Shown: one piece after another, positions 2,531 to 62,752 of the stretch | How positions within the stretch are numbered: the stretch's first letter is position 1 | How the letters are laid out: the number at the start of each line of letters is the position of its first letter | Assembly: GCA_028707065.1 (NCBI GenBank) | Contig: JAQTUZ010000004.1 | Coordinates: forward strand, 6,656 to 70,655 | Source of the DNA: Patescibacteria group bacterium | Lineage (GTDB): Bacteria; Patescibacteriota; Patescibacteriia; Patescibacteriales; WJLG01 | Direction: 5' to 3' | DNA length: 64,000 nt | Notes under the pieces: generated by a model | Databases searched by the model: none | What the model saw: only the letters and a program-made list of their open reading frames with translations | Told to the model about the DNA's origin: nothing | Made by a program: the position numbers and the translations under genes

Positions 2531-2531
2531 A

Positions 2532-8664: not shown

Positions 8665-8666
8665 AA

Positions 8667-9898: not shown

Positions 9899-11635
9899 TT
9901 ATTCTTGCGTTACTCTCATCACTTCTTCCAGGTTGGTCAGGCCGCTGACCGCTTTGATAAAACCGTCTTCCACCAGGCTGAGCATACCTTGTTTTTCCAC
10001 CTGTTTTTTCAATTCGGCGGTGTCGATCGTGTTGGTGATGAGTTCGGCCATTTCCGGAGTCATTTCCAGGGTTTCGTAAACGCCGATCCGGCCCTTGTAG
10101 CCGGAATTGTTGCAACGATTGCAACCTTGGCCGCGATAAAAGGTGATTGATTCCAGGCTGTCTTTAGTGCTGATGTTTTTTCCCCTTTCCAGCCGGGCCA
10201 GGATGTCGGTGATATTCAATTGTTTTTCAATGTCTTCGATGGCTTTATGGGAAAGGTGAAAAGGCTGTTTGCAGTAAGGGCAGACTTTTCTGACCAGGCG
10301 CTGGGCGATGATCAGGTTGGTCGTCGAAGCGATCAAAAACGAAGCAATGCCCATTTGCGCCAGGCGCGGCAAAGTCGTTACGGCATCATTGGTGTGCAAG
10401 GTGGACAAAAGCAAATGGCCGGTCATGGCGGCGTTCACCGAAATCTTGGCGGTTTCTTCATCGCGGATCTCGCCGACCATGATAATATTGGGGTCTTGGC
10501 GCAAGAGCGATCTTAAGCCGGCCTCGAAACCAAAACCGATCTTGGGATTGATCTGGGATTGATTAATATGCGGGATGCGGTACTCGATCGGGTCCTCGAT
10601 GGTGGCGATATTTACCTTGGGCGTGTTCAGTACGCTTAAGATCGTATAAAGCGTAGTTGTTTTTCCCGAACCGGTCGGGCCGGTGACGATGATCATGCCG
10701 TGCGGCTTGGTAATATTTCTTTTGACGATTTCCAGCGAGCCGGACAAAAAGCCGAGATTTTCCAAGCTAAGCGCCTGGGCTTTTTCATCCAATAATCTGA
10801 TCACGATCTTTTCGCCGTCAAAAGTGGGGATGATCGAGACGCGGCAAGAGACGCGGTATTTATCGGTGTAAATCTTAAAGCGTCCGTCTTGCGGCAAGCG
10901 GTGTTCATCGACTTTCAGGCTGGAAAGGATTTTTATTCTGGCGACAATGCCGGGCTGGACGTTTTTGCCCAGCGTCATCACATTATATAGTATGCCGTCG
11001 ATGCGGTAGCGGACGATCACGTCGTTTTCTTCCGGTTCGATATGGATGTCCGAAGCGTCTTTGAACATTCCGTATTCCAAAAGATCGTTGACGATGCGGA
11101 CGATCGGCAGATTGGCGGCGATTTTTTCCAGTTCTTCCGGCCGGTTGATCTCCATGCCCTCGCCTTCTTTTTTGGGCTCGCAAAAATTTTTGATCTCGGC
11201 ATTGATGGTTTCGCGATATTGTTTCAGCCCTTCTTTGATGCTTTCCGGAGTCGTCAAATAGACTTCAATTTCATAACCGGTTTTTTTTCTTAAAAAATCA
11301 AAAATTTCCAGATTTTCCGGATCGAGCACGGCGATCTTCAAGACATTGCCCGCCATAGTAAAGGCGATCAGATCGTGGGCGACCGCGATCGGCTCCGGAA
11401 CATTGAGCAGGGCATCTTTTTGGATGGTCTGTTCTTTCAAATTGACGAACGGCACTTTGAAATATTTGGCGGTTTCTTTGGCCAGATCTTCCGGAGCGAT
11501 GATTTTTTTCTCCGCCAGCAGGTCTTCGATCTTTTTGTCGTTTTCCGCGGCTTCGCGGGACAATTTATCAAAGTCCTCCTCGCTGATGATTTTGGCGCCG
11601 GTCAGAATATTTTTTAATTGTTGCTCGTTAAACAT
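9899..11635 (-). CDS. pilB: type IV pilus assembly ATPase PilB (GspE family)
   Basis: N-terminal MshEN/T2SSE_N-like domain, Walker A GPTGSGKTTT, Walker B IIMVGEIRD, His box GHLLLSTLHTNDA and a tetracysteine motif (CPYC…CNRC). SD AAGGGGG lies upstream of the ATG. Confidence 0.9.
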   Translation of the reverse strand: MFNEQQLKNILTGAKIISEEDFDKLSREAAENDKKIEDLLAEKKIIAPEDLAKETAKYFKVPFVNLKEQTIQKDALLNVPEPIAVAHDLIAFTMAGNVLKIAVLDPENLEIFDFLRKKTGYEIEVYLTTPESIKEGLKQYRETINAEIKNFCEPKKEGEGMEINRPEELEKIAANLPIVRIVNDLLEYGMFKDASDIHIEPEENDVIVRYRIDGILYNVMTLGKNVQPGIVARIKILSSLKVDEHRLPQDGRFKIYTDKYRVSCRVSIIPTFDGEKIVIRLLDEKAQALSLENLGFLSGSLEIVKRNITKPHGMIIVTGPTGSGKTTTLYTILSVLNTPKVNIATIEDPIEYRIPHINQSQINPKIGFGFEAGLRSLLRQDPNIIMVGEIRDEETAKISVNAAMTGHLLLSTLHTNDAVTTLPRLAQMGIASFLIASTTNLIIAQRLVRKVCPYCKQPFHLSHKAIEDIEKQLNITDILARLERGKNISTKDSLESITFYRGQGCNRCNNSGYKGRIGVYETLEMTPEMAELITNTIDTAELKKQVEKQGMLSLVEDGFIKAVSGLTNLEEVMRVTQE

Positions 11636-12504: not shown

Positions 12505-12714
12505 TATTCAACCGCAGGTCAAGACCCGCCCCCCTATCTTTTCTGTTGGGTGTCCCCGCCACAAGTGGACGAGATCTTTATCGGCGCTCGCTCGGAAATA
12601 ATCCCCGCGAGGCGCGGGATCATTTCACTCACTCGCTTGATAAGCAAGGTTATCGGCGCTCGCTCGGAAATAATCCCCGCGAGGCGCGGGATCATTTCAC
12701 TCACTCGCTTGATA
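12505..12714 (-). repeat. copy 1 of a ~136-nt structured intergenic element (reverse orientation, with an internal duplication)
   Basis: The reverse complement aligns along its length with 44223-44358 and 62522-62657: TATCAAGCG…GAAAT(A/G)ATCCCGC-loop-GCGG(G/A)GATTATTTC…AGAAAAGAT…TTGA(A)TACC. Confidence 0.85.
12579..12714. repeat. perfect 64-nt direct repeat x2 (period 72 nt)
   Basis: TATCGGCGCTCGCTCGGAAATAATCCCCGCGAGGCGCGGGATCATTTCACTCACTCGCTTGATA occurs at 12579-12642 and 12651-12714, separated by AGCAAGGT. Confidence 0.95.
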
Positions 12715-12747
12715 ATAAAAAAAGACCGGTCGCGAGATCGGTCTTTT
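12715..12747. terminator. bidirectional intrinsic terminator-like hairpin
   Basis: A-run, AGACCG-N10-CGGTCT, then T-run. Confidence 0.6.
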
Positions 12748-42390: not shown

Positions 42391-43404
42391 ATGTTCCTCT
42401 ATCGCGACATCTTAAAAAAATCTTTGGCCATCACCTGGACGCATAAGAATTTATGGTTCCTCGGCATTTTCGCCGGCCTGATCGGCGGCGTCAGCCAGTA
42501 CACCATGTCGATCAGCCAGTCTGCCGAAGATTGGACCTCGACCATTTTTTCCTCCTTGGCCATTTTTTTCGGACAGACGGCTAACGGAAACGCCTTTTCC
42601 AACTTGATCATGCTTTTCAAAGGCGCTCCGGTTTTCGCCACCATTTTCACCGCTTTTATTTTGATTGTTTTTGTCGTCACCTTATTTGTTATCTGGCTGG
42701 CGGTCGTTTCTCAAGCCGGCTTGGTCAATAATGGGGCGGCGATCATTAAAAGCAATAATAAAAAAGAAGGCCTGCCGATCCGGGACGGGCTGGATAAAGG
42801 GATTAAGAAGTTTTGGCCGGTATTCGGTTTTGATCTGATCGGCGCCGCCCTGACCTGTTTCTTCGCCGCTTTGGTCGGTTCGCCTTTGGTATTTTTGACC
42901 GCCGGGTCGGATGTGCGGGTTTTTCTGCTTTATGTCTTGCTCTTCATCGTCTTGATTCCGTTGTCCCTGATAATTTCTTTCATTGTTAAATACGCGGTTA
43001 ATTTTTCCATCATCAAAGAACGCAAATTCGTCGATTCTTTTATCGACGCTTGCCGCCTTTTCAGCAAGTACTGGCTGGTTTCCATTGAAATGGCCCTGAT
43101 CCTTTTTATGATCGACTTCCTTTTTGTTTTTGTTTTGGCCTTGGTGGTTCTGGTGCTGGCCATTCCTTATATTTTCGTGACGAGAATTTTGTCTTTGACT
43201 TTCTTGGCGGTGATCGGGGTGGATCCTATTTCCTCGATCGCGCTGACCGCCGGATTATTTCTCGCGCTGATTCTCGTTGTTTTGGGCAGCGCGGTCATTA
43301 CCGTCTTCAAGACCATGGCCTGGACCGACATCTTCATCAATCTGGTTGACAAAAAAGGCGGCCTGGCCAAATTGGAAAGAATGGCGGCGGGACTCAAGAA
43401 GTAA
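42391..43404 (+). CDS. polytopic membrane protein
   Basis: ~338 aa with at least 6 hydrophobic helices. No family recognised. Confidence 0.6.
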   Translation: MFLYRDILKKSLAITWTHKNLWFLGIFAGLIGGVSQYTMSISQSAEDWTSTIFSSLAIFFGQTANGNAFSNLIMLFKGAPVFATIFTAFILIVFVVTLFVIWLAVVSQAGLVNNGAAIIKSNNKKEGLPIRDGLDKGIKKFWPVFGFDLIGAALTCFFAALVGSPLVFLTAGSDVRVFLLYVLLFIVLIPLSLIISFIVKYAVNFSIIKERKFVDSFIDACRLFSKYWLVSIEMALILFMIDFLFVFVLALVVLVLAIPYIFVTRILSLTFLAVIGVDPISSIALTAGLFLALILVVLGSAVITVFKTMAWTDIFINLVDKKGGLAKLERMAAGLKK

Positions 43405-43587: not shown

Positions 43588-44121
43588 ATGAAAAAGATAG
43601 CAGTTTTAATGGTTTTGACAGCGATGTTTTTTGCGGGATGCGGGAATAAAGTCGCCGGACCTGAGGTTCCGCAATATTCCGCCGTCGTCAATTACGACCT
43701 TTCTCTTACCGAGATGATCGCCGACGGGGAATACGACGGTACTGATAATATCGGTGCCGATAATTTTTCCATAGAAGGAAAAGGGCAGGTTAAGGTCGAT
43801 TTTATTCTCGTTCTCGCTAGCCACAGTATTCTAATGGATACGATACGAGAAACCATTCCAATGGACACCGTGCTCAAAGAGCTTGATTACCAAGGATTAC
43901 GGCCGGCAACGATTGCGGAGCTTCTATCTTTTGGAGCTAAATATCCCGATGAGCAGCGGAAGTATCCTATCGTTGCCCTTGGCTCGGTTGGCTTAGACCC
44001 TGACGGCGGCAGCGTGGTGGCGGTTCTTTGCAAAGTTTATGCCGGGGGGCGCGAGTTGAAATTGTATTACGTTGATGGGGGTTGGTTTGTTAACTACCGT
44101 TACCTAGCCGTGCGCAAGTAA
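43588..44121 (+). CDS. lipoprotein, function unknown
   Basis: Lipobox MKKIAVLMVLTAMFFAGC and SD GAAGGGAG. Confidence 0.6.
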   Translation: MKKIAVLMVLTAMFFAGCGNKVAGPEVPQYSAVVNYDLSLTEMIADGEYDGTDNIGADNFSIEGKGQVKVDFILVLASHSILMDTIRETIPMDTVLKELDYQGLRPATIAELLSFGAKYPDEQRKYPIVALGSVGLDPDGGSVVAVLCKVYAGGRELKLYYVDGGWFVNYRYLAVRK

Positions 44122-44168: not shown

Positions 44169-44221
44169 GTCCGTTTCAATCACTGTGTTGCAAAACATGG
44201 TGGTCGAAACGGACTTTTTTA
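44169..44221 (+). terminator. intrinsic terminator (long loop)
   Basis: GTCCGTTTC-N28-GAAACGGAC followed by TTTTTT. Confidence 0.6.
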
Positions 44222-44222
44222 T

Positions 44223-44358
44223 TATCAAGCGAAGCGAGTGAAATAATTCCGCTACGGCGGAGATTATTTCCGAGCGAGCGATGATAAATACCTCGTCCGC
44301 TGGTGGCGAGGATACCTTTTAGAAAAGATGGGGCGAGTGCCTGCCCCGCGATTGAATA
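44223..44358 (+). repeat. copy 2 of the ~136-nt structured intergenic element
   Basis: TATCAAGCGAAGCGAGTGAAATAATTCCGC-TAC-GGCGGAGATTATTTCCGAGCGAGCGATGATAAATACCTCGTCC…GGCGAGGATACCTTTTAGAAAAGATGGGGC…GCCCCGCGATTGAATA. Confidence 0.85.
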
Positions 44359-44496
44359 CCATTTATTATTACAATTAAGAAATTGATTTAATTGGCAAAA
44401 AACAAGGGGTAAGATATAATATATAACAAAGAACAGGGAACAAAGAGCAATGCGTTAATAATTATTTTATACTCTTTGATTTATGTTCTTTGATCA

Positions 44497-47400
44497 ATGA
44501 TTTTTATGGCTACTTCTAAATCAATCGAAGAATTGATCAAGTCTTCCCGGGGTGAACCAATGGCTGATGAGTCAGCCGAAGCTAAATTCGCCAAAAAAGA
44601 AGAGGAGATAAAGATCAAGGAAATGGAACGCCAGACCGGCGAGCGGGCCGCCGCCGCGGGGTTGCCTTACATTGATCTTTTCGGTTTTCCCATCAGTCCG
44701 GAGGCGATCGCGCTGATTCCCGAGGCTGACGCGGCCAGATTGAAAATCGTTTGTTTTTTTTATGACGGCAATAACGCCCGGATCGCGGTGATGGATCCGT
44801 CCTTGCCGGAAATCGGACCGATCGCCGAAGCGATCGCCCATGATTACCACGTCAAAGTGGCGTTTTATATGATCTCCTCGCACAGTTTTGACTATGCCTT
44901 GAAAATATACCAGACACTCCCCAAGATCATCCGCCAGACCAGAGGAGTTGATATTACCGAAGAAGAATTGGAAAAATTCAAAACTTATATCGAAGACTAT
45001 CGGAGCTTGGCGCAAAAGATCAACGAGGTCAACACCACCGATGTCATCACCCTGATTTTGGCTACCGCTTTAAAGATGGATTCAAGCGATCTGCACATCG
45101 AGGCGGAAGAAAAAGGCATCGCCGTCCGAGTCCGCGTCGACGGCGTTTTGTACGAGGCGGCAATGATCGAAAAAGAAAAATGGAAGCAGATCATTTCCCG
45201 CTTGAAACTTTTAGCCAAGGTCAAGATCAACATCACCGATAAGCCGCAGGACGGGCGCTTCACTATTTTTTTAACCAAGGAAAAAATCGAAGTCAGGGTT
45301 TCCTTTCTGCCCACCAATTACGGCGAGAGTGTGGTCGTTCGCTTATTGCGGCCGGGTTCGATAAGTTTGGGTTTTGAAAAATTGGGTTTGCGCCCCAAGG
45401 CCTGGGAAATTTTGGAACGGGAGATCAATAAGCCGAACGGCTTGGTCCTTGCCACCGGTCCGACCGGTTCGGGAAAAACCACCACGCTGTACGCGATTTT
45501 GCGGAAGATCAACAAGCCGGGAATGAAAATAATCACCTTGGAAGACCCGATCGAATATCAGCTGGAAGGGATCAACCAAAGCCAGATTGATCCTTCCAAA
45601 GGTTATACTTTCGCGAGCGGCCTAAGGTCGATCTTGCGCCAGGACCCGGACGTGATCATGGTCGGCGAGATCCGCGATCTGGAAACGGGGGAAACGGCGA
45701 TCCAGGCCGCGCTGACCGGCCATCTGGTTTTAAGCACTTTGCATACCAACGACGCCGCCGGCGTACTGCCCCGTTTGATCGATCTGGGCGTCAAGCCGTA
45801 TTTTATGACGCCGTCGATCAACTGCATTGTCGGCCAGCGTTTGGTCAGGCACCTTTGCCCCCAATGCCGGGTTGAGCATATTCTTAATGAAGAAGAAAAA
45901 CAAAAACTGGAAAAAATACTCGCGGTGGTTTCGCCTAAATCCGGAGAAGACGTGCCCACGGTCTTGCCGAAAATTTATCAGGCCGGCGCCGGCTGCAAAG
46001 CTTGCAATGGCATCGGCTATAAAGGCCGTCTCGGCATTTACGAACTTTTTACCATGACCGAGAGCATCAAAGAATTGGCGACGCAAAACGCTCCGGCGTT
46101 CAAATTGCTGGAGCAGGCGATCGAGGATGGCATGCTGACCATGCTGCAGGATGGCGTGTTTAAAGTTATGGACGGACTGACTTCCTTGGATGAAGTTTAT
46201 CGCGTCATCGGCAAAACCGATTATGTCGACGCCTTGTATGATATCGTCATCTCCAAAACTTTCGGCCATGGCATCAAAGTCACCGAAGCGGATATTGCCC
46301 GCAGCGAAGAGATCGCGGCCGACCCGGCCACGATGAATGCCAAAGCCGGCCGCATTCCTTCCAGTGAACTTCTTAATCTGGTTATGGCTTTGGCTCTCAA
46401 AGATGATGCCGGTGATGTCCATATTGAACCGACCGAAGGCGACGTCAAGATCAGATTCAGGATTGACGGCATTTTGCATGATATCTTGACTTTGTCCAAA
46501 GAGCATTATTTGCCGCTTTTGTCGCAAGTGAAAATTTCCGCCGGCTTTCCGACCAATGTCAAAAAGGCTACCTGGGACGGGCGCTTCGGCATATTCTTGA
46601 AAGACAAGAAGATCGATTGCCGCATTTCCATCATTTCCGGCGGCTATGGCGAAACGGTCGTGGTCCGCGTTTTGTCTTCCCAGGCGGAAAGCTTGGATCT
46701 GGAAAAATTAGGCATGCGGCCTTACGCTTTGGATCCGGTCAAGCGCTCGATGTCCAAAACCAAGGGTGTGATCATCAATACCGGTCCGACCGGTTCGGGA
46801 AAAACTACCACGCTTTACGCTATTTTAAACGCCTTGAATAAATCAGACGTGAAAATTATTACTGTCGAAGATCCGATCGAGTATCATCTTCCCGGCGTGA
46901 TGCAGACCCAGATCGACCCGGAACAAGGCTATACTTTCGCCGCGGCCATGCGTTCGCTCTTGCGCCAGAATCCCAACATTATGATGATCGGCGAAATCCG
47001 CGACGAGGAAACGGCCAAGATCGCGATTGAAGCATCGCTCACCGGCCACTTGGTCTTATCAACCATCCACGCCAACACGGCCGCCACCGCCATTTCCCGT
47101 TTTGCCGGCTTGGGCGTGGGCGCGCAAATGCTGGCTTCGGCGGTCGAATGCACGATCGGCCAGCGCCTGGTCCGTAAAAATTGCCAATTCTGCAAAGCGG
47201 AAGTGAAATTATCCGACGAGCAAATGAAAGAAGTAAAAACGATCCTTGATTCCATCAGTCCGCTGGCAAAAATAAAAATCCCCAAAATTTTGAAGTTTTA
47301 TCAAGGGAAGGGCTGCGCCAAATGCAATAACTTGGGCTACAAAGGGCGCTTGGGTATTTATGAAACGATTGAGATGATCCCGGAAATGCAGCGCAAGATC

Positions 47401-47538
47401 CAGGAAACCAACGTGACCGCTTTTGATATCGAGCAAGAGGCGATCAAATACGGCACGGTGACGATGATGCAAGACGGCATTTTGAAAGCTTTGGACGGGG
47501 AGACGAGCGTGGAGGAAGTGTTCCGGGTGGTAAAATAA
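44497..47538 (+). CDS. tandem-duplicated GspE/PilB-family secretion ATPase (two complete ATPase modules in one polypeptide)
   Basis: MshEN-like N-domain, then module 1 (Walker A GPTGSGKTTT at nt 45457, VIMVGEIRD, GHLVLSTLHTNDA, CPQC…CKAC). A ~45-aa linker leads to module 2 (Walker A at nt 46783, IMMIGEIRD, GHLVLSTIHANTA, CQFC…CAKC). Confidence 0.85.
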   Translation: MIFMATSKSIEELIKSSRGEPMADESAEAKFAKKEEEIKIKEMERQTGERAAAAGLPYIDLFGFPISPEAIALIPEADAARLKIVCFFYDGNNARIAVMDPSLPEIGPIAEAIAHDYHVKVAFYMISSHSFDYALKIYQTLPKIIRQTRGVDITEEELEKFKTYIEDYRSLAQKINEVNTTDVITLILATALKMDSSDLHIEAEEKGIAVRVRVDGVLYEAAMIEKEKWKQIISRLKLLAKVKINITDKPQDGRFTIFLTKEKIEVRVSFLPTNYGESVVVRLLRPGSISLGFEKLGLRPKAWEILEREINKPNGLVLATGPTGSGKTTTLYAILRKINKPGMKIITLEDPIEYQLEGINQSQIDPSKGYTFASGLRSILRQDPDVIMVGEIRDLETGETAIQAALTGHLVLSTLHTNDAAGVLPRLIDLGVKPYFMTPSINCIVGQRLVRHLCPQCRVEHILNEEEKQKLEKILAVVSPKSGEDVPTVLPKIYQAGAGCKACNGIGYKGRLGIYELFTMTESIKELATQNAPAFKLLEQAIEDGMLTMLQDGVFKVMDGLTSLDEVYRVIGKTDYVDALYDIVISKTFGHGIKVTEADIARSEEIAADPATMNAKAGRIPSSELLNLVMALALKDDAGDVHIEPTEGDVKIRFRIDGILHDILTLSKEHYLPLLSQVKISAGFPTNVKKATWDGRFGIFLKDKKIDCRISIISGGYGETVVVRVLSSQAESLDLEKLGMRPYALDPVKRSMSKTKGVIINTGPTGSGKTTTLYAILNALNKSDVKIITVEDPIEYHLPGVMQTQIDPEQGYTFAAAMRSLLRQNPNIMMIGEIRDEETAKIAIEASLTGHLVLSTIHANTAATAISRFAGLGVGAQMLASAVECTIGQRLVRKNCQFCKAEVKLSDEQMKEVKTILDSISPLAKIKIPKILKFYQGKGCAKCNNLGYKGRLGIYETIEMIPEMQRKIQETNVTAFDIEQEAIKYGTVTMMQDGILKALDGETSVEEVFRVVK

Positions 47539-47653: not shown

Positions 47654-48229
47654 ATGTTAAATAAGAAGTTCATCGAGAAGCTCAAGGGGGATTATCAAAA
47701 GTCGCAGTCGGAAAGACGGCAGATCATTTCTATTTCCAATGAAATCCTGCATGATTCGAAAAAGACGATTTTCGCCCTGCATCGCGGAGAAATAAAACAG
47801 GCCGAGGAAACTTTCAAAGCGATCGAGGAATCGCTGGCGCGGATGGAAAAGAATTTCGGCTTTAACCGCAACGAGGACGAGGGTTCTTATAAAGCGGCGG
47901 TTGAAGAATATGTCGAAGCCAAGATGTTTTATTATTATCTGTCCGGCCAAAAGATCGACAAAATTTCCGAAGTCAATCTGGATTATGACAGCTATATCGG
48001 CGGCATCTGCGATTTCACCGGCGAGATGGTCCGCTACGCCACTAACCAGGCGGCGGCGGGAAATTTCGAGAAAGTCGCGGAAGTGAAAGAAGCGATCAAT
48101 CTGGTGATCGGCGAACTGATCGATTTTGATCTGGGCGGCTATCTGCGGACCAAGTATGACCAGTGCCGGTCTAATTTAAGGAAGATCGAAGAAATGGCTT
48201 ATGAGGTGAAATTAAAAACTGGCAAATAA
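47654..48229 (+). CDS. translin-family protein
   Basis: …DYDSYIGGICDFTGEMVRYATNQAAAGNFE…LRTKYDQCRSNLRKIEEMAYEV matches the conserved translin C-terminal pattern (Y..G..D.tGE..R……LR.KyD…….E…Y). Confidence 0.65.
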   Translation: MLNKKFIEKLKGDYQKSQSERRQIISISNEILHDSKKTIFALHRGEIKQAEETFKAIEESLARMEKNFGFNRNEDEGSYKAAVEEYVEAKMFYYYLSGQKIDKISEVNLDYDSYIGGICDFTGEMVRYATNQAAAGNFEKVAEVKEAINLVIGELIDFDLGGYLRTKYDQCRSNLRKIEEMAYEVKLKTGK

Positions 48230-48246
48230 AGTTTGGAAAATAGCAA

Positions 48247-48276
48247 AAGCGCGGGTTGGACCCGCGTTTTTTGTTT
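48247..48276 (+). terminator. intrinsic terminator
   Basis: CGCGGGT-TGG-ACCCGCG followed by TTTTTTG. Confidence 0.85.
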
Positions 48277-51002: not shown

Positions 51003-51074
51003 TTAGCGTCGCAGTCCGCGGCGGCTTGTCCCGAGTTTGCCGAGGGAAGACTGCGACGAGGCTAATATTTTTTT
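51003..51074 (+). promoter_or_regulatory. long terminator-like hairpin with T-run in the leader of the sigma-factor operon
   Basis: TTAGC-GTCGCAGTC…(32-nt loop)…GACTGCGAC-GA-GGCTAA followed by TATTTTTTT, ~60 nt before the preferred sigma-factor ATG. No upstream plus-strand gene is present for it to terminate. Confidence 0.45.
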
Positions 51075-51135
51075 AAAAAGAACAATCTCTGATATAATGA
51101 AGGTAATAAGTTACTCTCAGTTGCGTTATAACTTT

Positions 51136-51720
51136 ATGGCATCAACCGAAGCGTTTTTAGAAAATGAAGCCGAGCTCGTGGAAAAAGCCAAGGTCGATGA
51201 CCAGGCTTTTAGTATTCTTTACCAGCATTATTTTCCCAAGATTTACGGCTACGTGCAGAAGCGCGTCTCGGGCCGGGAAACGGCGGAAGATATTGTCTCG
51301 CAAGTTTTTTTAAAGGCTTTCGGCCATCGGCAAAAATATCAGAGCCGCGGTTTTAGTTTTGGCGCCTGGCTTTACCGCATCGCCACCAACGCCTTGACTG
51401 ATCATTATCGCCGCCAAGGCTCTCATCTCGAAGAAGCGATCACTGACGATTCGGCGCGCGAGCCGGCGGGCGAAAATTTAACCGAAGAATTGATCCAAAA
51501 AAGCGATCGGCAAGCGATCGAAAAAGTGCTTAACAAGATGCCCGAACGCTACCGGCAAGCCGTCTATCTGCGCTATTTCGCGGAAATGGAAATTTTCGAG
51601 ATCGCTGAAACTCTGCAGCTTCCCAAAACGCATGTTTCGGTGATCTTGCATCGCGCCCTGGATTGCTTCCGCCAAAAGGCGGACAAAGCCGGAATAAAAT
51701 TTTATCTGATAATTTTTTAA
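51136..51720 (+). CDS. sigma-70 family (ECF-type) RNA polymerase sigma factor
   Basis: Region 2 (FSILYQHYFPKIYGYVQKRV…AEDIVSQVFLKAF…WLYRIATNALTDHYRR) and region 4 (RYRQAVYLRYFAEMEIFEIAETLQLPKTHVSVILHRAL). The start could instead be 51097. Confidence 0.85.
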   Translation: MASTEAFLENEAELVEKAKVDDQAFSILYQHYFPKIYGYVQKRVSGRETAEDIVSQVFLKAFGHRQKYQSRGFSFGAWLYRIATNALTDHYRRQGSHLEEAITDDSAREPAGENLTEELIQKSDRQAIEKVLNKMPERYRQAVYLRYFAEMEIFEIAETLQLPKTHVSVILHRALDCFRQKADKAGIKFYLIIF

Positions 51721-51723: not shown

Positions 51724-54700
51724 ATGGAACAAGAATTAAATCCAAACCAAGGCCAAGACCTGGCTGGGCGTAATAAAGAGGATGAGGCAGCGTTATTAAA
51801 GGCAGAGGAAAAAATTAAAAACCTCGCTTTTAAAGACGAACCCGCTACGCCGGATTTCCAGGAAAATTTGCAAAATCGGATTTTGGCGGCGCGCCATCGT
51901 CATTTTTCTATGTCCGAATTTTTAAACAAGCTCGCCAAAGGATTGATTTTTATGTTTGACACCAAGGCTTTTGTCCCGGCCGTGGCCGTTTTTTTGATCA
52001 TTGCCGTCGGCTTGAGCCTGACCATGCCCTGGCTGCCGCGGCAAGCGGGCGTTAATAATCCCTGGGGGAAGATCTCCCAATTGGTTATCAACCCGGCCTA
52101 CGCGCAGGATAATTTTTCCGCCGAGGCGACCATTTCCGACAGCTTGGGCGTTGGCGCCGATACGGCTTTTATCATTAAAAGCAAAGAGGCGATTGACGAG
52201 CAAACTCTGCGGGCGAACATAACTTTACAACCGACGACCGAATTTTCCTTAACCAAGATCGATGATCATACTTATCAAGTAATTCCGGCGCAAGCTTTGG
52301 CGGCCAAGAAAGTTTATAGCTTGAAGATCGCCAGCGCTTATGTCGATCAAAGCGGCGCCACCGTCGAGCGCGATTATTCCTGGGCCTTCCAGGTCAAAGA
52401 TATTTTTAAGGTTTTGAATTCGATCCCGGGCAATCAGGCCAATGGCGTGCCGTTGGATGCCGGAATTGAAGTGACTTTTTCCAACGAAAACTTCAGCAAT
52501 TACGAACAAGCGTTCAAGATCGAGCCGGCCATTGCCGGGCGTTTTGAGATTCACAAGCGCACTTTGGTTTTTGTGCCCAAAGCTTTGGAGGCGGGGATGA
52601 TCTATACCGTGACCATCAATAAAGATTTGCTGAAAGTTACGGGGAGCGAAGCCAAGCTCGCGGAAAATTATGTCATTCAATTTGAAACCGATCCGGCCGG
52701 AAAAAAACGCGGCGAGTATTCCGAATTCAATTTCCAAAATAATTTTAACGAGATCTATACCGAACGCGCGCCGGCGCTGGCTGTCAATCTATACAACATC
52801 AAACAGGAAACTTTTGCCGTCGAAGTTTACGCATTTTCCGGCGCGGACGGATTTATTGCCGCCCTGGAAAAGTCGCAAAAAATTCCCTATTGGGCGCAGT
52901 ACAATCGCGCTGTCTACAATACCGACGTTTCCGCCTTGACTAAAGTTTCCTCGTTTTCCATTCCTTTGTCGCCTTTTGGCTACAACAAATACTTGGTGTT
53001 TCCCGACAAGATCGCCAAGGGTTTTTATGTCGTTCAGGTCAATATCAACGGCGTTTATCTTCAGACATTTATGGAGGTTTCCGATTTGACCAATTATACG
53101 ACCGTGACTGATACCAATACTTTGGTTTGGCTCAACAATATCAAAACCAAAGGACCGGCGGCCGGGGCGAAGGTAAAAATTATCGGCACGGACAAGCAGA
53201 CGGTTACCGGAAGCGACGGAACGGCCGTGATGCCGACCAGCTGGCTGTCTGCCGGCACCACCAGCGACCGCACTTACTTGCTGATCGACGCGGGAGAAAA
53301 AACGATCGTGCCGATCAATTTCAATTATCAAAACACCGCGCCAACGGGCGTCATGCCTTTGAGCGCCGCTTCTAAATTCTGGTATTATTTTTATACCGAT
53401 CGGATGACTTACCAGCCGGGCGACACGGTCAGCTATTGGGGCTTTGTCAAACCACGGGAAGGAGTGAAAAGCTCTTCGACGGTCACGATCAAATTATTCG
53501 GCTGGCAAAGTTATTACGATTATTACAATGACCCGGTGCCGCTCTTGCAAACCGCGGCGCAGCTTGATCCTAACTTTACTTTTACCGGCAAGATCGATCT
53601 GGGGCGTTTATCCGCCGGGTATTATTATTTGGAATATTTTATCGGCGACCAGATGATCGGCAGCCGCGGTTTGAACATCGAGAACTATGTCAAACCGGCT
53701 TATAAAGTGGAGGCGAACGCCGACCAGCACGCGGTTTTTGCGGGGCAGACCCAGTCGATCGCGGTCAAGGCCAGCTTTTTCGAAGGCACGCCGGTTCCTA
53801 ATCTGGCTTTAACTGACCCGAACGATAACGGGCAATTAAAAACCAACGCTTTGGGCGAAGCGATCAAAACTTTTAAGGTCGATCCGGTTTCCGGCGACTA
53901 CGGCAGCAACTGCAATTATTTTTATCCGGTCGCGTCCGAGGAAGCCGATATTTCCGCCAGCGCTTGCTACACTGTTTTCAATTATAGCGTCGTCCCCAAG
54001 GGGGAACTGGTGAAAACGGACGGAGCCGATCAGGCGAAATTGCAATTAAACGTGAAAAAGGTGGATATCGCCAAAGCCAACGTGGTCGGGGCGACCGAAG
54101 ATCAATTCTTGCACGAAGCCGCTCCGGGCATGCCCGTAACCGTTTCGGTCACGGAAATTTCTTATCAGGCCGTTTCCACCGGACAGTATTATGATTTCTT
54201 CAATAAGATCGTGCGTAATACCTATCGCTACAATGAGATCAGAAATAATATCGCCTCGGCCAAGGGCAAAACCGATTCGGCCGGCCAATACCAGTATTCA
54301 TTTCCGATCAAGCCGAAAAACAGTTATGAAGTCAATGTCACGATCAAGGATGTTAACGGCCAGGATATCAATGAGCGATATTATATCTATTACAGCCAGT
54401 ATAATTTTGACGATCAAAGCGATTATTATAATTTGGGATTCAAAGATCAGAAGAAAACGGATTTTTCCTTGGGCGAACAGGTGCAGATCCAATATAAGAA
54501 TAAGGATCAGCTCTTGCCTGTTGCCCCCGGCCATTATCTTTTCTATCGCCTGTTCAAAGGATTGGTGGATTATCAGATCGGCGGCAGCGCGGAATATAAT
54601 TTCAATTTTACCGACCGCTTCTTGCCCGGCGTGTACGTGATGGGAGTTTATTTTGACGGTGAAACTTACCATCGGCCGGGAAGTTACGGTTATTGGGAGT

Positions 54701-57297
54701 CATATTCCCCCGGGCTGTATGTGCCTTTCAAGCAAACCGACCGGGAATTAAAAGTCGAGGTGACGCCGGATAAAGACAAATATCAGCCGGGAGGCGAGGT
54801 GAAGTTGGCTGTCAAAGTTACCGACAAATCCGGCAAGCCCGTGGCGGCGAGCGTCAATCTTAATCTGGTTGACGAGTCTTATTACGCGATCTATCCGGAA
54901 AACGTCGATGCCCTGGGAGGATTATACGGCAATCGGGTCGAGGACGGCGAGTTAGTGACTTATATTTCCAATCCGGCGCCGGCGCTTGGCGCCGAAGTCG
55001 CGGAAAGGGGCGGCTGTTTTCTCGCGGGCACCAAAATAACCATGGCCGACCGGTCGCTTAAAAATATCGAAGATGTTAAAATCGGCGACGAGGTGCTTAC
55101 CTTTACCAATGAAACGGCGCGGAGTTTGGTGGCGGGAAAAGTAACCAAGACCTATGTCCACGAAGTCGGCGAGTATTTGATCATTAATGATAAATTAAAA
55201 ATCACTCCGATCCACCGCGTTTTCTTGAACGGCCAATGGCGGATGATCGGCGAAGCCAAGGTCGGCGACTGGCTTTTGGACGAGCAAGGCGAAAAAGTTA
55301 AGATTGCCAAGATCGAGGACCGCCGCGGTCTGTTCAAAGTTTATAATCTGACGATCGAGCCTTATCATACTTTTTTTGCCGAAGGTTTTTATGTCCATAA
55401 TGATAAAGGCGGCGGCGTGCGTTCGCTGTTCGTGGATACGGCCGTGTTTATGAACGTCAACACCGGCGCTGATGGCGCGGCAATCGCCGCCTTCAAGCTG
55501 CCGGATAATATCACTTCCTGGCGCGTGACCGCGCAAGCTTTAAGCGGCGATCTTTACGCCGGCGACAAGGTCATCAATCTCAAATCGTCTCTGCCGGCCT
55601 TCGTCAACACCACTTTCGCCAAAGAATATTTAACGGTCGATAAGCCGATCGTAAAAGTGCGGGCTTTCGGCGACGCGCTGCGCGATAATGATCCGGTGCA
55701 ATTCAAAATGGACGCGCCGACTTTGAATTTTTCGAGCACGACCGTCGGCCAGGCCTTTGTTGCTTCCTATTTTAAGCTCCCGCCATTGGCGATCGGCGAG
55801 CACTCGATCACCACGGCGATCAAAGCCGGCGGCAACCAGGACGCGGTTTTGGAAAAAGTGAAGGTGCTCGATACTCGTTTTAAAGAAACCAAAACCCAGT
55901 TCTATGAATTATCGCCGGGCCTTAAAGCGGCCGGGGCGCCCGATGGCCAGACTAATTTGATTTTCAGCGACAAAAACCAAGGCCGATTCTACGGCCAGCT
56001 TTCCTATTGTTTCTTTTGTTCGGGCGGCGATCGGGTCGATCAAAAATTGGCCCGGGTCGTATCGGCCGATCTCTTGAAGAAATATTTCGGCGAAGAACCC
56101 TTTAACCCGGAAACTTTTAACGGGGCGATGTATCAAACCGATGACGGCGGCGTCGCTTTGCTGCCCTATGCTTCTTCGGATTTTGAATTGTCAGCCAAGG
56201 TCGCTTTTGTCGCCGGAGATTATTTCGATAAGACCCGGCTGACCAATTATTTTTACAAGATTTTGACGGCCGATGATTCGACCCGCGAACAAGTCGGGGT
56301 TTCTCTTTTCGCCTTGAGCGGTTTGGGCGAACCGATCTTGTCGCCGGCGGAAAATTTCGCCGCGCTGCCCGATCTCACCGCTAAGGAAAAATTGTATATC
56401 GGCATTGCCCTGAATCATTTGGGCGACGCGGAAACGGCGCGCGCTATCTATTCGGCGGTAATAAAAGACAAAGGAGAAAAATTAGATCCTTATCTGCGGG
56501 TCAAAGTTTCGGATTCCAACGATGAGATTTTGGCGGCGACCTCGCTGGCGGCGATCTTGGCGGGCGGGCTCTTAATTCCCGATCATGAACAATTATGGAA
56601 TTACGCGGAAAGTAATTATACCCGGAATATCTCGATTGATCTGGAAAAGCTGGCCTATGTTTCCGAAACTTTGCCCAAACTTACTCCGGGCGAAGTATCC
56701 TTTACCATCAATCTGCCCGGAAGAAAAATCGACAAAACTCTCTCGCGCGGCGAAAGTTTCCGCCTGAAAATCGAACCGGCTGATCTGGGAGTGATTTCAT
56801 TCTCCAATATCAAAGGCCAGGTCGGCTTGACCAGTTCTTACCAGGCGCGCGAAGCCAATATCGCGCCTCGTGATGATTCTTATGTTTCCTTGCGGAGAGA
56901 ATACTATGTCAACGGCGTTAAGACCAATACCTTCAAAGAAAGCGACTTGGTGGAGATCAGGATGTACCCGTCCTTCAAACCCGGCGCCTTAAATTATGGT
57001 TATCAAATTACCGATCTGCTCCCTTCCGGGTTGAGCGTGATGACCAATCTTTATTCGCGCGGCATGAATTACTCCTGCAGCAATTATTATCCTTACGAAG
57101 TTAACGGGCAGACGGTTAAGTTCTCGATCTGGAAGGACTGGAATAAAGGTTCATATTGCCATACGGATTATTTCAGTTATTTCGCCCGCGTCGTTAATCC
57201 GGGCGAATACCGGGCCGAATCGGCCGTGATCCAGTCGTTCGAGGCAAGCACCGTCAAGAATTATTCCGGCGCGAATACGGTGTTGATCGAAAAATAA
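51724..57297 (+). CDS. membrane-anchored alpha-2-macroglobulin-like protein (1857 aa) with an inserted Hint domain
   Basis: Starts 4 nt after the sigma-factor stop. N-terminal ~80 aa, then a TM helix (AFVPAVAVFLIIAVGLSLTM). MG-type domains (FYTDRMTYQPGDTVSYWGFV; VEVTPDKDKYQPGGEVKLAVKVTDKSGKPVAASVNLNLVDESYYAI). A2M block (VRSLFVDTAVFMNV…FKLPDNITSWRVTAQA). I saw no CxEQ thioester motif. Confidence 0.8.
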   Translation: MEQELNPNQGQDLAGRNKEDEAALLKAEEKIKNLAFKDEPATPDFQENLQNRILAARHRHFSMSEFLNKLAKGLIFMFDTKAFVPAVAVFLIIAVGLSLTMPWLPRQAGVNNPWGKISQLVINPAYAQDNFSAEATISDSLGVGADTAFIIKSKEAIDEQTLRANITLQPTTEFSLTKIDDHTYQVIPAQALAAKKVYSLKIASAYVDQSGATVERDYSWAFQVKDIFKVLNSIPGNQANGVPLDAGIEVTFSNENFSNYEQAFKIEPAIAGRFEIHKRTLVFVPKALEAGMIYTVTINKDLLKVTGSEAKLAENYVIQFETDPAGKKRGEYSEFNFQNNFNEIYTERAPALAVNLYNIKQETFAVEVYAFSGADGFIAALEKSQKIPYWAQYNRAVYNTDVSALTKVSSFSIPLSPFGYNKYLVFPDKIAKGFYVVQVNINGVYLQTFMEVSDLTNYTTVTDTNTLVWLNNIKTKGPAAGAKVKIIGTDKQTVTGSDGTAVMPTSWLSAGTTSDRTYLLIDAGEKTIVPINFNYQNTAPTGVMPLSAASKFWYYFYTDRMTYQPGDTVSYWGFVKPREGVKSSSTVTIKLFGWQSYYDYYNDPVPLLQTAAQLDPNFTFTGKIDLGRLSAGYYYLEYFIGDQMIGSRGLNIENYVKPAYKVEANADQHAVFAGQTQSIAVKASFFEGTPVPNLALTDPNDNGQLKTNALGEAIKTFKVDPVSGDYGSNCNYFYPVASEEADISASACYTVFNYSVVPKGELVKTDGADQAKLQLNVKKVDIAKANVVGATEDQFLHEAAPGMPVTVSVTEISYQAVSTGQYYDFFNKIVRNTYRYNEIRNNIASAKGKTDSAGQYQYSFPIKPKNSYEVNVTIKDVNGQDINERYYIYYSQYNFDDQSDYYNLGFKDQKKTDFSLGEQVQIQYKNKDQLLPVAPGHYLFYRLFKGLVDYQIGGSAEYNFNFTDRFLPGVYVMGVYFDGETYHRPGSYGYWESYSPGLYVPFKQTDRELKVEVTPDKDKYQPGGEVKLAVKVTDKSGKPVAASVNLNLVDESYYAIYPENVDALGGLYGNRVEDGELVTYISNPAPALGAEVAERGGCFLAGTKITMADRSLKNIEDVKIGDEVLTFTNETARSLVAGKVTKTYVHEVGEYLIINDKLKITPIHRVFLNGQWRMIGEAKVGDWLLDEQGEKVKIAKIEDRRGLFKVYNLTIEPYHTFFAEGFYVHNDKGGGVRSLFVDTAVFMNVNTGADGAAIAAFKLPDNITSWRVTAQALSGDLYAGDKVINLKSSLPAFVNTTFAKEYLTVDKPIVKVRAFGDALRDNDPVQFKMDAPTLNFSSTTVGQAFVASYFKLPPLAIGEHSITTAIKAGGNQDAVLEKVKVLDTRFKETKTQFYELSPGLKAAGAPDGQTNLIFSDKNQGRFYGQLSYCFFCSGGDRVDQKLARVVSADLLKKYFGEEPFNPETFNGAMYQTDDGGVALLPYASSDFELSAKVAFVAGDYFDKTRLTNYFYKILTADDSTREQVGVSLFALSGLGEPILSPAENFAALPDLTAKEKLYIGIALNHLGDAETARAIYSAVIKDKGEKLDPYLRVKVSDSNDEILAATSLAAILAGGLLIPDHEQLWNYAESNYTRNISIDLEKLAYVSETLPKLTPGEVSFTINLPGRKIDKTLSRGESFRLKIEPADLGVISFSNIKGQVGLTSSYQAREANIAPRDDSYVSLRREYYVNGVKTNTFKESDLVEIRMYPSFKPGALNYGYQITDLLPSGLSVMTNLYSRGMNYSCSNYYPYEVNGQTVKFSIWKDWNKGSYCHTDYFSYFARVVNPGEYRAESAVIQSFEASTVKNYSGANTVLIEK
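55015..55401 (+). other. Hint / bacterial-intein-like (BIL) domain, 129 aa, no endonuclease
   Basis: CFLAGTKI (block A), ITPIH (block B TxxH), VYNLTIEPYHTFFAEG (block F), FYVHN (block G). The next residue is Asp. Confidence 0.8.
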
Positions 57298-59860: not shown

Positions 59861-61005
59861 AAATATCCAAGAATTACTTTATGGCCGTGGCGGTTTTGGT
59901 CGGCGCGATTACCGGCGCCGGAGTTTTTGCCATGCCTTTTGTTTTGACTCATTCCGGTCTTTGGCCGTTTGTTTTTTGGTTTCCCATTTTGGTCGCGGTC
60001 CAATGCCTGATCCATCTTCTTTTTGCCAAAGTCATTTTGTCCACCAAGGGCTTGCACCGCGTTCCCGGCTACACGGAAATTTATGCCGGAAAGAATTGGA
60101 AAAAAATTGTTTCGATTTTTGCCGTAATCGGCGGCTGGGGCACGATCCTGGCCTATATAATTTTGGGCGGCGTCTTTTTTAATCAGTTTTTTTCCCCGCT
60201 GATCGGGGGCAGCCTTTTCACTAATTCGCTCATTTTTTTCGCCTTGGAAACTGTGGTGGTCATTGCCGGATTAAAGACGATCGCGGGATCGGAAATGATT
60301 TTTTCCTTTTTACTCCTTATTTTATTCGTGGTGCTGTCGGTCAAATGCTTCGGCCGGTTTGATCTGAGCAATTTTACGGCGGTCAATTGGGAGGATTTTT
60401 TTCTCCCTTATGGCGTGATTTTTTTCGCGATTGGCGGCGATGCGGCCATTCCGGAAGTGGTAAAACTTTTGGATAAGGAAAAGGAAAAAATAAAAAGCGC
60501 GATCTTGTGGGGGACGATCTTGCCCGCGGTTATGATGTTTATTTTTGTGATCGCCACGGTCGGGGCAATGGGCGCGTTGACTACCGCAGACGCTTTGTCT
60601 GGATTGAACAAATTTTTCGGCAATGGCTTTGTTTCCATCTCCCTGCTTTTCGGCTTAATTTGCATTGCCACTTCGTTCTGGGTATTTGCCCAAGCGGTGC
60701 GGGAAATATTCTGGTGGGACTTTAAGATCAATAAGTATTGGTCGCTGGTTTTAGCCGTCGGCGTTCCGCTGGCATTTTTTATTTTCGGCTTTACTAATTT
60801 GACGACAGTCGTTTCTCTTTCCGGCGCGATCACCAGCGGCGTTTTAGGAATTATTCTGATTTCTCTGACCGCGGCCGTGGACCGTGAGGGGCAAAAAAAA
60901 TCGCCCATCGCCATTAAAACTTCCCGGCCGTTGGCGATCGTTTTGTATTCTCTTTTCATTGTCGGGTTTTTGACCGAGCTGTGGACGATAATTTTTAAAT
61001 TATGA
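59857..61005 (+). CDS. amino-acid permease-like transporter (~11 TM helices)
   Basis: The N-terminus …AVAVLVGAITGAGVFAMPFV… is typical of amino acid/aromatic amino acid permease families. 382 aa and polytopic. Confidence 0.65.
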   Translation: MKISKNYFMAVAVLVGAITGAGVFAMPFVLTHSGLWPFVFWFPILVAVQCLIHLLFAKVILSTKGLHRVPGYTEIYAGKNWKKIVSIFAVIGGWGTILAYIILGGVFFNQFFSPLIGGSLFTNSLIFFALETVVVIAGLKTIAGSEMIFSFLLLILFVVLSVKCFGRFDLSNFTAVNWEDFFLPYGVIFFAIGGDAAIPEVVKLLDKEKEKIKSAILWGTILPAVMMFIFVIATVGAMGALTTADALSGLNKFFGNGFVSISLLFGLICIATSFWVFAQAVREIFWWDFKINKYWSLVLAVGVPLAFFIFGFTNLTTVVSLSGAITSGVLGIILISLTAAVDREGQKKSPIAIKTSRPLAIVLYSLFIVGFLTELWTIIFKL

Positions 61006-61571
61006 AAATCGCGGTAATTTCCGATCTTCACGATAATCTGGTCAACTTGAGAAAATGTCTCTCTTGGTGCGGGCAAAATAATATCGAGAAGCTGATCTGC
61101 TGCGGCGACGTGACCAACGCGGAGACGCTGGGAATTCTTTCCCGGGAATTTAAGGGAGAAATTTTTTTAGTCCGCGGCAATTTGGAGATCTACCAAGAAG
61201 AAGAAATCGAGCCTTATAAAAATTATACTTATGGCGGGCGGCTTGCCGGCCATAGCCTTGGCGACGGCCGGACGGCGATTTGGGAGATTGATGGAAAAAA
61301 AGTCGGCGTCTGCCATGAACCTTTTTTTATCAATCAAGTTTTAGCAAAAGCAAAATCCCCCCTCCTTTCTAAGGAGGGGTCTGGGGGTGGTTCTGCAAAG
61401 GCGGCGGACATCGTCTTTTACGGCCATACTCATAAGCCCTGGATCGAAGAAAAAGACCATGTTCAAATAGTGAATCCGGGAACTTTGGGCGGAGTCTTCA
61501 CTCAGCCGACTTTTGCTGCTTGGGATACCGTGAGTGGTAAACTGGAATTAAAATTGCTGAATAATCTCTAA
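61002..61571 (+). CDS. YfcE/MJ0936-type metallophosphoesterase
   Basis: MKIAVISDLHDN, CCGDV, VRGNLE and FYGHTHKP motifs. Carries a 14-aa insertion encoded by the GC-rich palindromic element. Confidence 0.8.
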   Translation: MKIAVISDLHDNLVNLRKCLSWCGQNNIEKLICCGDVTNAETLGILSREFKGEIFLVRGNLEIYQEEEIEPYKNYTYGGRLAGHSLGDGRTAIWEIDGKKVGVCHEPFFINQVLAKAKSPLLSKEGSGGGSAKAADIVFYGHTHKPWIEEKDHVQIVNPGTLGGVFTQPTFAAWDTVSGKLELKLLNNL

Positions 61572-62429: not shown

Positions 62430-62522
62430 TTAAGTGGGTGAATTCCCTGTTTAATGGTGTTAGTCGAAGCAGTATGGGCTTTGCTCGAACGAAGCAATCG
62501 TTTTGGCAAAGCCCTTTTTTTT
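62430..62522 (+). ncRNA. candidate ~90-nt small RNA (promoter-to-terminator unit without an ORF)
   Basis: Bounded by the promoter at 62397-62425 and the terminator GGGCTTTGC-N21-GCAAAGCCC-TTTTTTTT (62476-62522). The loop contains CGAAGCAATCG, as does the terminator at 62854-62903. Confidence 0.35.
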
Positions 62523-62657
62523 ATCAAGCGAAGCGAGCGAAATAATCCCGCGACAGCGGAGATTATTTCCGAGCGAGCGATGATAAATACTTCGTCCGGC
62601 GGCACGCGAGGATACCTTTCAGAAAAGATGGGTGCGGGGATTGCCTTGCGCTTGATA
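62522..62657 (+). repeat. copy 3 of the ~136-nt structured intergenic element
   Basis: Terminal inverted repeat TATCAAGCG…CGCTTGATA. Internal hairpins are GAAATAATCCCGC-GACA-GCGGAGATTATTTC, CTTCGTCC…GCGAGG and GCGGGG-ATTG-CCTTGC. Confidence 0.85.
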
Positions 62658-62752
62658 CCATTCGTTTGTTATAATTATCTTGGTTCATTCAGCCCCTTTT
62701 CTGGCATGAAAAGGGATATCCGCATTTCAACCCCTTTAAAGAGAGGTGAATT

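Follow-up and report, generated by a model that had tools for sequence, protein, structure and literature searches.

A Patescibacteria ATPase gene of the PilB/GspE type with two motor modules in one chain

Architecture of the tandem ATPase

We analysed a 64,000-nucleotide stretch of contig JAQTUZ010000004.1 from a Patescibacteria group bacterium (GenBank assembly GCA_028707065.1; the whole stretch is called the window below), in which positions 44497 to 47538 of the forward strand form one uninterrupted open reading frame (ORF) with an ATG start, encoding 1013 amino acids (aa) and a stop codon. The encoded protein starts with a single N1/MshEN-fold domain, which is followed by two full motor modules, each built of an N2 domain (N2D) and a C-terminal domain (CTD) as in the pilus and secretion ATPases PilB and GspE. 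That two motor modules are joined in this chain had been proposed from the letters of the sequence, and the domain searches bear this out: Pfam T2SSE (PF00437) matched two full-length stretches (758 bits in total; cut-off 24.9), MshEN matched once, and the NCBIfam models of PilB and of GspE covered two stretches each. The gene and its parts are as follows (coordinates in the window, strand, what it is).

44497..47538, + strand: tandem PilB/GspE-type ATPase gene (ORF, Pfam, NCBIfam, motif search, family-wide conservation)
44659..44898, + strand: N1 domain (Pfam MshEN / T2SSE_N fold), residues 55-134 (PF05157, 30.6 bits; cut-off 23.1)
44947..46218, + strand: module 1 (connector, N2 domain, CTD), residues 151-574, the conservative half (Pfam, half-to-half alignment, conservation)
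46219..46272, + strand: inter-module linker, residues 575-592 (KTDYVDALYDIVISKTFG) (conservation, AlphaFold2)
46273..47535, + strand: module 2 (connector, N2 domain, CTD), residues 593-1013, the faster-evolving half (Pfam, half-to-half alignment, conservation)

The characteristic motifs were recovered in both modules at the residues given for them in the original prediction: Walker A (GPTGSGKT, residues 321 and 763), the Asp box (EDPIEY, 349 and 791), the atypical Walker B with the catalytic Glu (GEIRD, 390 and 832), the His box (408 and 850) and the CxxC pairs (454 and 500 in module 1, 896 and 940 in module 2), which make up a Zn-binding tetracysteine in each module (CPQC...CKAC and CQFC...CAKC). 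The four boxes by which PilT/VirB11-like secretion ATPases are recognised are thus each present twice, and they are kept throughout the family. The features of the PilB/GspE clade, i.e., the Zn tetracysteine, two Arg fingers in the N2 domain together with the Asp-box Glu, and an N1 domain, were also found, and the protein departs from that clade in having two motor modules per polypeptide instead of one. Motifs and Zn sites place the protein with the PilB/GspE type and not with the PilT type. The ComGA model (NF041000; cut-off 300 bits) gave 248.6 and 228.7 bits for the two halves, below its cut-off, and the PilT/PilU model (TIGR01420; cut-off 319.1 bits) gave 189.9 bits for the N part and no match at E <= 1e-50 for the C part.

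The N1 domain is present once per chain, that is, once per two motors, and was modelled by AlphaFold2 as an alpha/beta domain with a predicted local distance difference test score (pLDDT) of about 80-90. In MshEN domains cyclic di-GMP is bound by a tandem 24-residue motif, RLGxx(L/V/I)(L/V/I)xxG(L/V/I)(L/V/I)xxxxLxxxLxxQ (PMC5013675). Neither the strict nor a relaxed form of this pattern was found in the 1013-aa protein, and a cyclic di-GMP-binding N domain was rejected.

The two halves are 45% identical over 422 residues (E 9e-138), and each is 44-45% identical to the PilB encoded in the pil operon of the window, which is about the distance between the halves themselves; an old duplication of the motor module is indicated by these comparisons. 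The homology between the halves starts at residue 151 in the first and residue 593 in the second, and the non-duplicated linker therefore comprises about 18 residues (575-592), residues 593-620 being the duplicated counterpart of the connector between N1 and N2. The linker had been predicted to be about 45 aa long, which does not hold. Its mean conservation among 119 close members of the family is 0.81, and AlphaFold2 predicts a helix (575-588) running into a low-confidence hinge (584-591).

Each module is predicted with confidence to adopt the PilB fold (mean pLDDT of the full-length AlphaFold2 model 82.8). PilB (Geobacter metallireducens 5TSG/5TSH/6OLJ; Myxococcus xanthus 3JC8) is the best match of each module in sequence (E about 1e-99, 44-45% identity) and in structure (Foldseek template modelling (TM) score, target-normalised, up to 0.94 against Geobacter PilB 5tsh), and it shares with the tandem protein the order N1-N2D-CTD, the Walker A, Asp, atypical Walker B and His boxes, the two Arg fingers, the tetracysteine and the acidic pore loop. 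PilB differs in having one motor module and one N1 domain per chain and in forming a homohexamer, whereas the tandem protein has two diverged modules and a single N1 domain per chain and is encoded outside the pil operon. The similarity to GspE/EpsE (Vibrio 1P9R, 4KSR/4KSS, 4PHT) is about equal (E about 1e-96), with the same set of motifs including the Zn-binding cysteines, but no genes of a type II secretion system surround the tandem gene (no gsp genes were found nearby in the window), and the host group lacks a secretin: Patescibacteria have been described as having neither a secretin nor an outer membrane (perspective literature on the candidate phyla radiation, CPR). The closest precedent for a PilB enlarged by internal duplication is PilF of Thermus thermophilus (5IT5, 5OIU, 6EJF, 6F8L), which serves pili and DNA uptake; its chain is long (913 residues in 6f8l) and its motor core superposes on each module with a TM-score of 0.92-0.94, but in PilF the GSPII/MshEN-type N domains were multiplied and the motor is single, whereas here the motor was doubled and the N domain is single.

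Occurrence of the fusion in other genomes

In a word-index search of 5.8 billion proteins, the best 120 matches listed are all tandem proteins; among the matches listed at least 118 are full-length (about 990-1030 aa; 62-92% identity), from NCBI, JGI, ENA and Logan assemblies. An exact-sequence look-up of the 1013-aa protein matched no record. Where a match is named, it is entered as 'GspE/PulE family protein' and comes from Patescibacteria, Falkowbacteria or Parcubacteria (e.g., KKU82539.1 of Parcubacteria GW2011_GWA2_47_8), with no Saccharibacteria among these names, and the family has been present in databases under generic names since the CPR genomes of 2015. A scan of metagenomes was made with an alignment of the junction only and retrieved 80 loci (a contig scan with the full-length alignment was swamped by the generic motifs GPTGSGKTT and T[VI]EDPIEY, and the tandem gene was present in only one of 80 loci, L005). 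All 59 complete ORFs with the junction run in a single frame of 1003-1041 codons and carry two GxxxxGKT P-loops. Their identity to the query ranges from 57 to 87%, and grouping at 90% identity yields 42 clusters.

The concern raised with the original prediction, a stop, frameshift or misassembly at the junction, is refuted by the same uninterrupted frame in independent assemblies. That errors of sequencing or assembly (a missing stop or a frameshift) had joined two neighbouring ATPase genes, or that a repeat had collapsed, was a prior concern with a metagenome-type assembly, and no evidence in its favour was found. The frame is open across the junction in the window, in the database proteins and in the 59 independent metagenome ORFs, the linker itself is conserved, and a collapsed repeat is impossible because the halves are only 45% identical; we regard an artefact as next to inconceivable. 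By these comparisons the fusion is a genuine and vertically conserved architecture.

More distant relatives came from phmmer, run exhaustively against 1.84 billion representatives at 50% identity. Among 15,738 relatives at E <= 1e-30, only 14 representatives are tandem proteins (about 980-1047 aa), and those with a named source are from Patescibacteria/Parcubacteria. Most of these distant tandem representatives carry the linker motif DY[IV]xxLY...RGI. The tetracysteine predicted for each half is complete in the query and its close relatives (all eight Cys are invariant in the 119 close members), but it is incomplete in some distant tandem members (P0121, P0123 and P0126). In a neighbour-joining tree of 160 modules with bootstraps, the C-halves cluster (about 45% bootstrap) and the N-halves intermingle with single-module PilBs. 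Twelve of the 14 tandem representatives and the query look like one old family of Patescibacteria, because they have the linker motif in common, their C-halves cluster and their synteny is shared.

Three of the natural tandem proteins (P0129, P0126 and P0133) resemble the query in length, about 1000 aa, and in the pair of T2SSE modules per chain, but the linker motif of the query family was not found in them. The two halves of P0129 (995 aa, on a 7-kb NCBI contig) are closer to each other than to any other module (distance 0.32), and this is apparently a recent, independent tandem duplication. P0133 (1047 aa; L090, 8001-11144) has an N-terminal PilC-type T2SSF region ahead of its two T2SSE modules, has lost the first Walker A Lys, and lies in a setting that does not look like CPR (an adjoining pair of extracytoplasmic function (ECF) sigma and anti-sigma factors; sulfatase, CBM9, BatA/MoxR); this platform-motor-motor fusion seems to have arisen on its own. 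The halves of P0126 are unusually similar, yet its RuvB neighbourhood is shared with other distant members. Since P0129 and P0133 are independent fusions, tandem fusion of the motor arose more than once.

Two candidates for a natural split version of the gene were rejected. P0140 is a fragment at a contig edge, and P0205 (L092, 908-2584) is a genuine one-module protein, related to an N-half and ended by a real stop codon. Non-coding sequence follows this stop, and the gene overlaps an AbiEii gene. The N-half of the tandem protein P0127 is closest to P0205 (distance 0.41), which may have arisen from a tandem gene by truncation.

The original prediction knew of no characterised tandem-motor fusion, and none came to light. 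All 20 PDB sequences that matched are single-module, the sole 'fused' GspE structures being engineered GspE-Hcp1 chimeras that force hexamers. Full-text searches gave no description of a tandem PilB/GspE, most subscription journals being outside their coverage, and there is no mention of one in a paper on type IV filament evolution, a 2024 review of PilB, or papers on CPR protein families and perspectives. A 2026 survey of archaeal type IV filaments reported no fusion or fission of the ATPase in archaea. The tandem ATPase family is apparently uncharacterised so far; the motor type itself is already known, and what is new here is a PilB/GspE-type motor with a duplicated motor module.

Conservation and asymmetry of the two modules

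Functional residues were taken from a paper on the mechanism of PilB (PMC5424180), with the numbering calibrated on an alignment with Geobacter PilB (the PDB chain has a 20-residue tag), and their conservation was judged in the 119 close and 13 divergent members. All of the residues named in that paper are kept in both halves:

K327 in the N-half, K769 in the C-half: P-loop Lys
T323 in the N-half, T765 in the C-half: P-loop Thr
E353 in the N-half, E795 in the C-half: Mg-binding Asp-box Glu (Geobacter E357)
E391 in the N-half, E833 in the C-half: catalytic Glu
R267 in the N-half, R709 in the C-half: Arg finger, N2 domain (Geobacter R271)
R282 in the N-half, R724 in the C-half: Arg finger, N2 domain (Geobacter R286)
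R254 in the N-half, R696 in the C-half: PQDGR Arg
T407 in the N-half, T849 in the C-half: inter-unit contact (Geobacter T411)
H409 in the N-half, H851 in the C-half: His box
H416 in the N-half, H858 in the C-half: His box
R451 in the N-half, R893 in the C-half: inter-unit contact (Geobacter R455)
D394 in the N-half, D836 in the C-half: acidic pore loop
E396 in the N-half, E838 in the C-half: acidic pore loop

Neither half looks degenerate, and both appear functional. This part of the original prediction stands for the catalytic, Arg-finger, His-box and pore residues, but the halves are not equivalent. When the 81 positions conserved at >=90% in 125 single-module relatives were taken as a canonical set, the N-halves kept 74 and the C-halves 65 of them, and the mean divergence is higher among C-halves (1.07) than among N-halves (0.91). 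Two canonical positions are lost from the C-half. Of 13 C-halves, 12 have another residue (Q677 in the query) at the equivalent of R235, an Arg in a helix of the N2 domain that corresponds to about Geobacter R238, and 9 have Asn (N825 in the query) at the equivalent of D383, the first Asp in the extended Walker B box. These substitutions and rates point to a conservative N-type and a faster-evolving C-type half, to relaxed or altered constraint on the N2 domain of the C-module, and to a motor module that was duplicated and sub-functionalised.

The same asymmetry could be read as a loss of function, with the N-module as the sole working ATPase and the C-module as a slow or regulatory pseudo-subunit kept for ring architecture or nucleotide sensing. 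The faster evolution of the C-halves, their fewer canonical positions and their shared loss of the R235 equivalent and change of D383 to Asn agree with this, as does the independent fusion P0133, one module of which is without the Walker A lysine. Set against it is the invariance of the Walker A Lys, the Mg-binding Glu, the catalytic Glu, the Arg fingers and the His-box histidines of the C-half across the 119 close and 13 divergent members; such purifying selection on the catalytic set is hard to square with an inactive site, and we hold this asymmetric motor to be unlikely.

Gene neighbourhood and possible assembly of the motor

The tandem gene stands apart from the pil operon of the window, as had been predicted: the operon lies roughly 33 kb away on the minus strand (1946-11635) and encodes its own PilB (578 aa), PilC, a 767-aa protein with a CarboxypepD_reg domain, a pilin-like protein, a 488-aa protein of unknown function, PilM, PilN and PilO. 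No PilT was found in this operon or in the window, and by tblastn the window contains only three T2SSE modules, i.e., the tandem pair and the operon PilB. No PilC, PilM/N/O or pilin gene lies beside the tandem gene, and no pil genes adjoin it in 10 annotated related contexts. The features around it are the following.

42391..43404, + strand: polytopic membrane-protein gene, about 337 aa from the first Met (mechanical ORF from 42349; homologues upstream in relatives)
43588..44121, + strand: lipoprotein-like ORF, 177 aa, between the membrane-protein gene and the ATPase gene
44216..44377, + strand: repeated hairpin element ('136-nt element'), intergenic, upstream of the ATPase gene
44392..44420, + strand: sigma-70-type promoter-like site TTGGCA-17-TATAAT, 77 nucleotides (nt) upstream of the ATG (11 of 12 consensus positions; consensus match only)
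47654..48229, + strand: Translin-family gene, 191 aa (Pfam Translin, E 4.7e-24)
48245..48271, + strand: intrinsic-terminator-like hairpin, a 12-bp stem followed by a T run (consensus match only)

The membrane protein matched no Pfam or NCBIfam family. In three related loci (L081, L083 and L086) the tandem ATPase gene comes right after a gene whose product is 33-37% identical to this protein, and the two genes abut with gaps of 3-156 nt. The 177-aa ORF that separates the two genes in the window also matched no family, and the relatives have no gene at that position. The Translin-family protein has its best PDB matches in NEQ131 (5jr9, E 3e-12) and AfTRAX, to which it aligns through the acidic motifs, and by these alignments it is closest to the archaeal TRAX/C3PO nucleases. 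The promoter-like site is the top score in a scan of 43.4-48.4 kb; together with the terminator-like hairpin it brackets the ATPase and Translin genes, which are probably co-transcribed.

The copy of a 136-nt element that had been predicted to precede the gene is the hairpin at 44216-44377; two blocks of it recur, with 93% and 71% identity, in the other copy at 62515-62677, and related units occur as tandem inverted hairpins at 12578-12643 and 12650-12715. The members of this hairpin family are palindromic repeats of about 66-160 nt. The copy next to the ATPase gene folds as RNA with -55.2 kcal/mol (z = -3.76), and an Rfam scan of the whole window, the hairpin element included, gave no match. 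Beside the second copy, 13 kb downstream of the tandem gene, lies a homologue of the metallophosphoesterase that comes after Translin in most related loci (61002-61571, + strand; 48% identity to the copy in L081), the displacement of which suggests a local rearrangement. The window also encodes an 1857-aa alpha-2-macroglobulin-like protein (51724-57297, + strand; Big_5, MG2, A2M_BRD, A2M), in which a PT-HINT/Hint-type domain (residues about 1097-1226) is inserted between the bait-region and A2M domains; an ECF-type sigma factor gene (51037-51720) lies just upstream of it.

In the junction-specific metagenome loci, the next gene after the tandem ATPase is Translin in 53 of 61, a metallophosphoesterase is within 2.5 kb in 45 of 61, and the gene just before the ATPase encodes a homologue of the membrane protein in 44 of 55. 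This shared gene order marks the genes for the membrane protein, the tandem ATPase and the TRAX-like nuclease as a conserved cluster in the subclade of the query. Distant members (L085, L087, L088, L089 and L005) have an older block, in which PolA and TsaE on the opposite strand, a DHH gene and the tandem ATPase follow each other and RuvB lies further on. The DHH genes are weakly NrnA-like and are orthologous across four deeply diverged loci (28-43% identity). The link with Translin is limited to the subclade at >=57% identity, and that with DHH/RuvB to other clades.

These neighbours invite the question whether the motor belongs to pili at all. It might instead power a distinct, undescribed membrane machine that imports or turns over nucleic acids, made up with the upstream polytopic protein and coupled to nucleases that act on single strands (TRAX/C3PO-like, Metallophos, or DHH in older clades). 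The lack of adjoining pil genes, the cluster of membrane protein, tandem ATPase and Translin (with or without Metallophos) kept across the 42 clusters at 90% identity, the orthologous DHH genes upstream in the four diverged loci, the promoter-like and terminator-like sites around the ATPase-Translin pair and the canonical PilB that the genome already has in its pil operon all fit such a machine. The argument is one of guilt by association, however: neither a fold nor a family could be recognised for the membrane protein, the two nuclease associations belong to different clades and could reflect housekeeping synteny (PolA, TsaE, RuvB), and the PilB-type pore residues in both modules suggest a PilC-like partner. 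ATPase genes of type IVa pili also often lie apart from the other pil genes (type IV filament evolution paper), and since these genes are known to be scattered, a location outside the pil operon is compatible with a function in pili. On balance a motor outside pili seems doubtful to us. A more specific version, in which a three-chain, six-site alternating ring would work with the unannotated membrane protein (not PilC) and the nucleases to take up foreign nucleic acid and break it down as a source of nucleotides, is offered as a speculation with rather poor odds.

The reading that we prefer is that of a tandem PilB/GspE-type, filament-assembly-type ATPase of Patescibacteria with both modules active and three chains to the ring, to which, taken as a whole, we give a rough probability of 0.55. 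In the PilB hexamer each N2D is packed against the CTD of the next chain, which gives six rigid packing units that flexible linkers connect as 'beads on a string' (PMC5424180). A covalent tie between CTD1 and N2D2 is geometrically natural because of this packing. Both modules would be active motor subunits that line one pore, and the ring would be a pseudo-hexamer of three chains in which N-type and C-type modules alternate, with no more than three N1 domains; a three-chain ring of alternating subunits had also been put forward in the original prediction, and it is plausible. Of the six N2D:CTD packing units, three would then lie within a chain, and this could be why the N2 domain of the C-module is under relaxed constraint. 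A single in-plane ring is favoured because both modules keep the catalytic set, the residues that sense neighbouring units and the pore loop, and a ring of three chains in one plane is the most plausible assembly in the light of these residues. The same concept of two ATPases per chain and six sites has been realised in engineered linked dimers of Msp1, which form pseudohexameric trimers of dimers and so let non-equivalent sites alternate (PMC12793716), but those are artificial and AAA+, whereas the tandem protein is natural, anciently diverged and of the PilT/VirB11-like superfamily.

The motor would most likely drive type IV filament-like assembly in a monoderm-like cell, with a PilC/PilM platform encoded elsewhere or the adjacent membrane protein as its partner. 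By association, the nucleases that recur beside the gene (TRAX-like; DHH in older clades), together with the putative transcription unit that the ATPase shares with the TRAX-like gene, hint at a function related to nucleic acids, possibly in their uptake or processing.

The two modules could also form separate tiers. Six chains would then build a double ring of two coaxial hexamers, one of N-modules and one of C-modules, and two-tier rings are the usual outcome of tandem duplication of ATPases in other superfamilies (type II AAA+ proteins such as ClpB and p97; KaiC). The flexible hinge predicted at residues 584-591, the lack of a fixed CTD1-N2D2 contact in the AlphaFold2 model and the distinct, conserved identities of the two modules, as in the tiers of two-tier proteins, are consistent with stacking. 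No stacked ring is seen in solved structures of PilT/VirB11-like ATPases, however, and the main contact of the family, N2D(n):CTD(n+1), lies in the plane of the ring, where a covalent tie from one subunit to the next suits it directly. The acidic pore loop (D394/D836, E396/E838) is kept in both modules and would be needless in a distal tier; in PilB it was proposed to engage the platform protein PilC on the side that faces the membrane (PMC5424180). We consider a stacked double ring distinctly improbable.

Several observations weigh against the three-chain filament motor. AlphaFold2 gave no confident placement of the modules relative to each other in the monomer (predicted TM-score 0.48 for the full length and 0.64 for residues 298-730, i.e., CTD1-linker-N2D2). 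Canonical PilB has a C2-symmetric CCOCCO state (PMC5424180), which by symmetry considerations mismatches the three-fold sequence symmetry of a tandem trimer. The PilB equivalog model TIGR02538 (cut-off 675.65) gave 859 bits for the whole protein solely as the sum of two stretches, the N part alone reaching 469.8 and the C part 397.3 bits, both below the cut-off (the operon PilB of the window, with 558.9 bits, is likewise below it), and the halves scored 470.2 and 422.7 bits on the GspE equivalog TIGR02533, also below its cut-off of 630.25. The family of the upstream membrane protein showed no relationship to the PilC family (hhalign probability 0.3%), and a PilC-like identity of this protein was rejected. 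The nuclease neighbours may be mere synteny in small genomes. Finally, the neighbour-joining tree does not show a single origin of the fusion (the N-halves are not monophyletic), and the definition of the family therefore rests on the linker motif, the half-specific substitutions and the synteny.

Secretion and pilus motor ATPases (PilB, PilT, GspE, FlaI, VirB11) are described as homohexamers, and how six identical sites take turns is debated, including whether the cycle has two-fold or three-fold symmetry. A natural covalent dimer, conserved since ancient times, of two diverged, catalytically intact modules is a ready-made asymmetric motor. If the ring model is true, site-specific mutations could be placed at every second position of the ring without engineering, and the three-fold sequence symmetry would constrain the possible conformational cycles. 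Type IV pili were reported to be essential for the episymbiotic lifestyle of Patescibacteria, a group of ultra-small bacteria in which scarcely any biochemical testing has been done so far, and the cluster with a membrane protein and a TRAX-like nuclease suggests that the tandem ATPase may serve a machine other than the canonical pilus.

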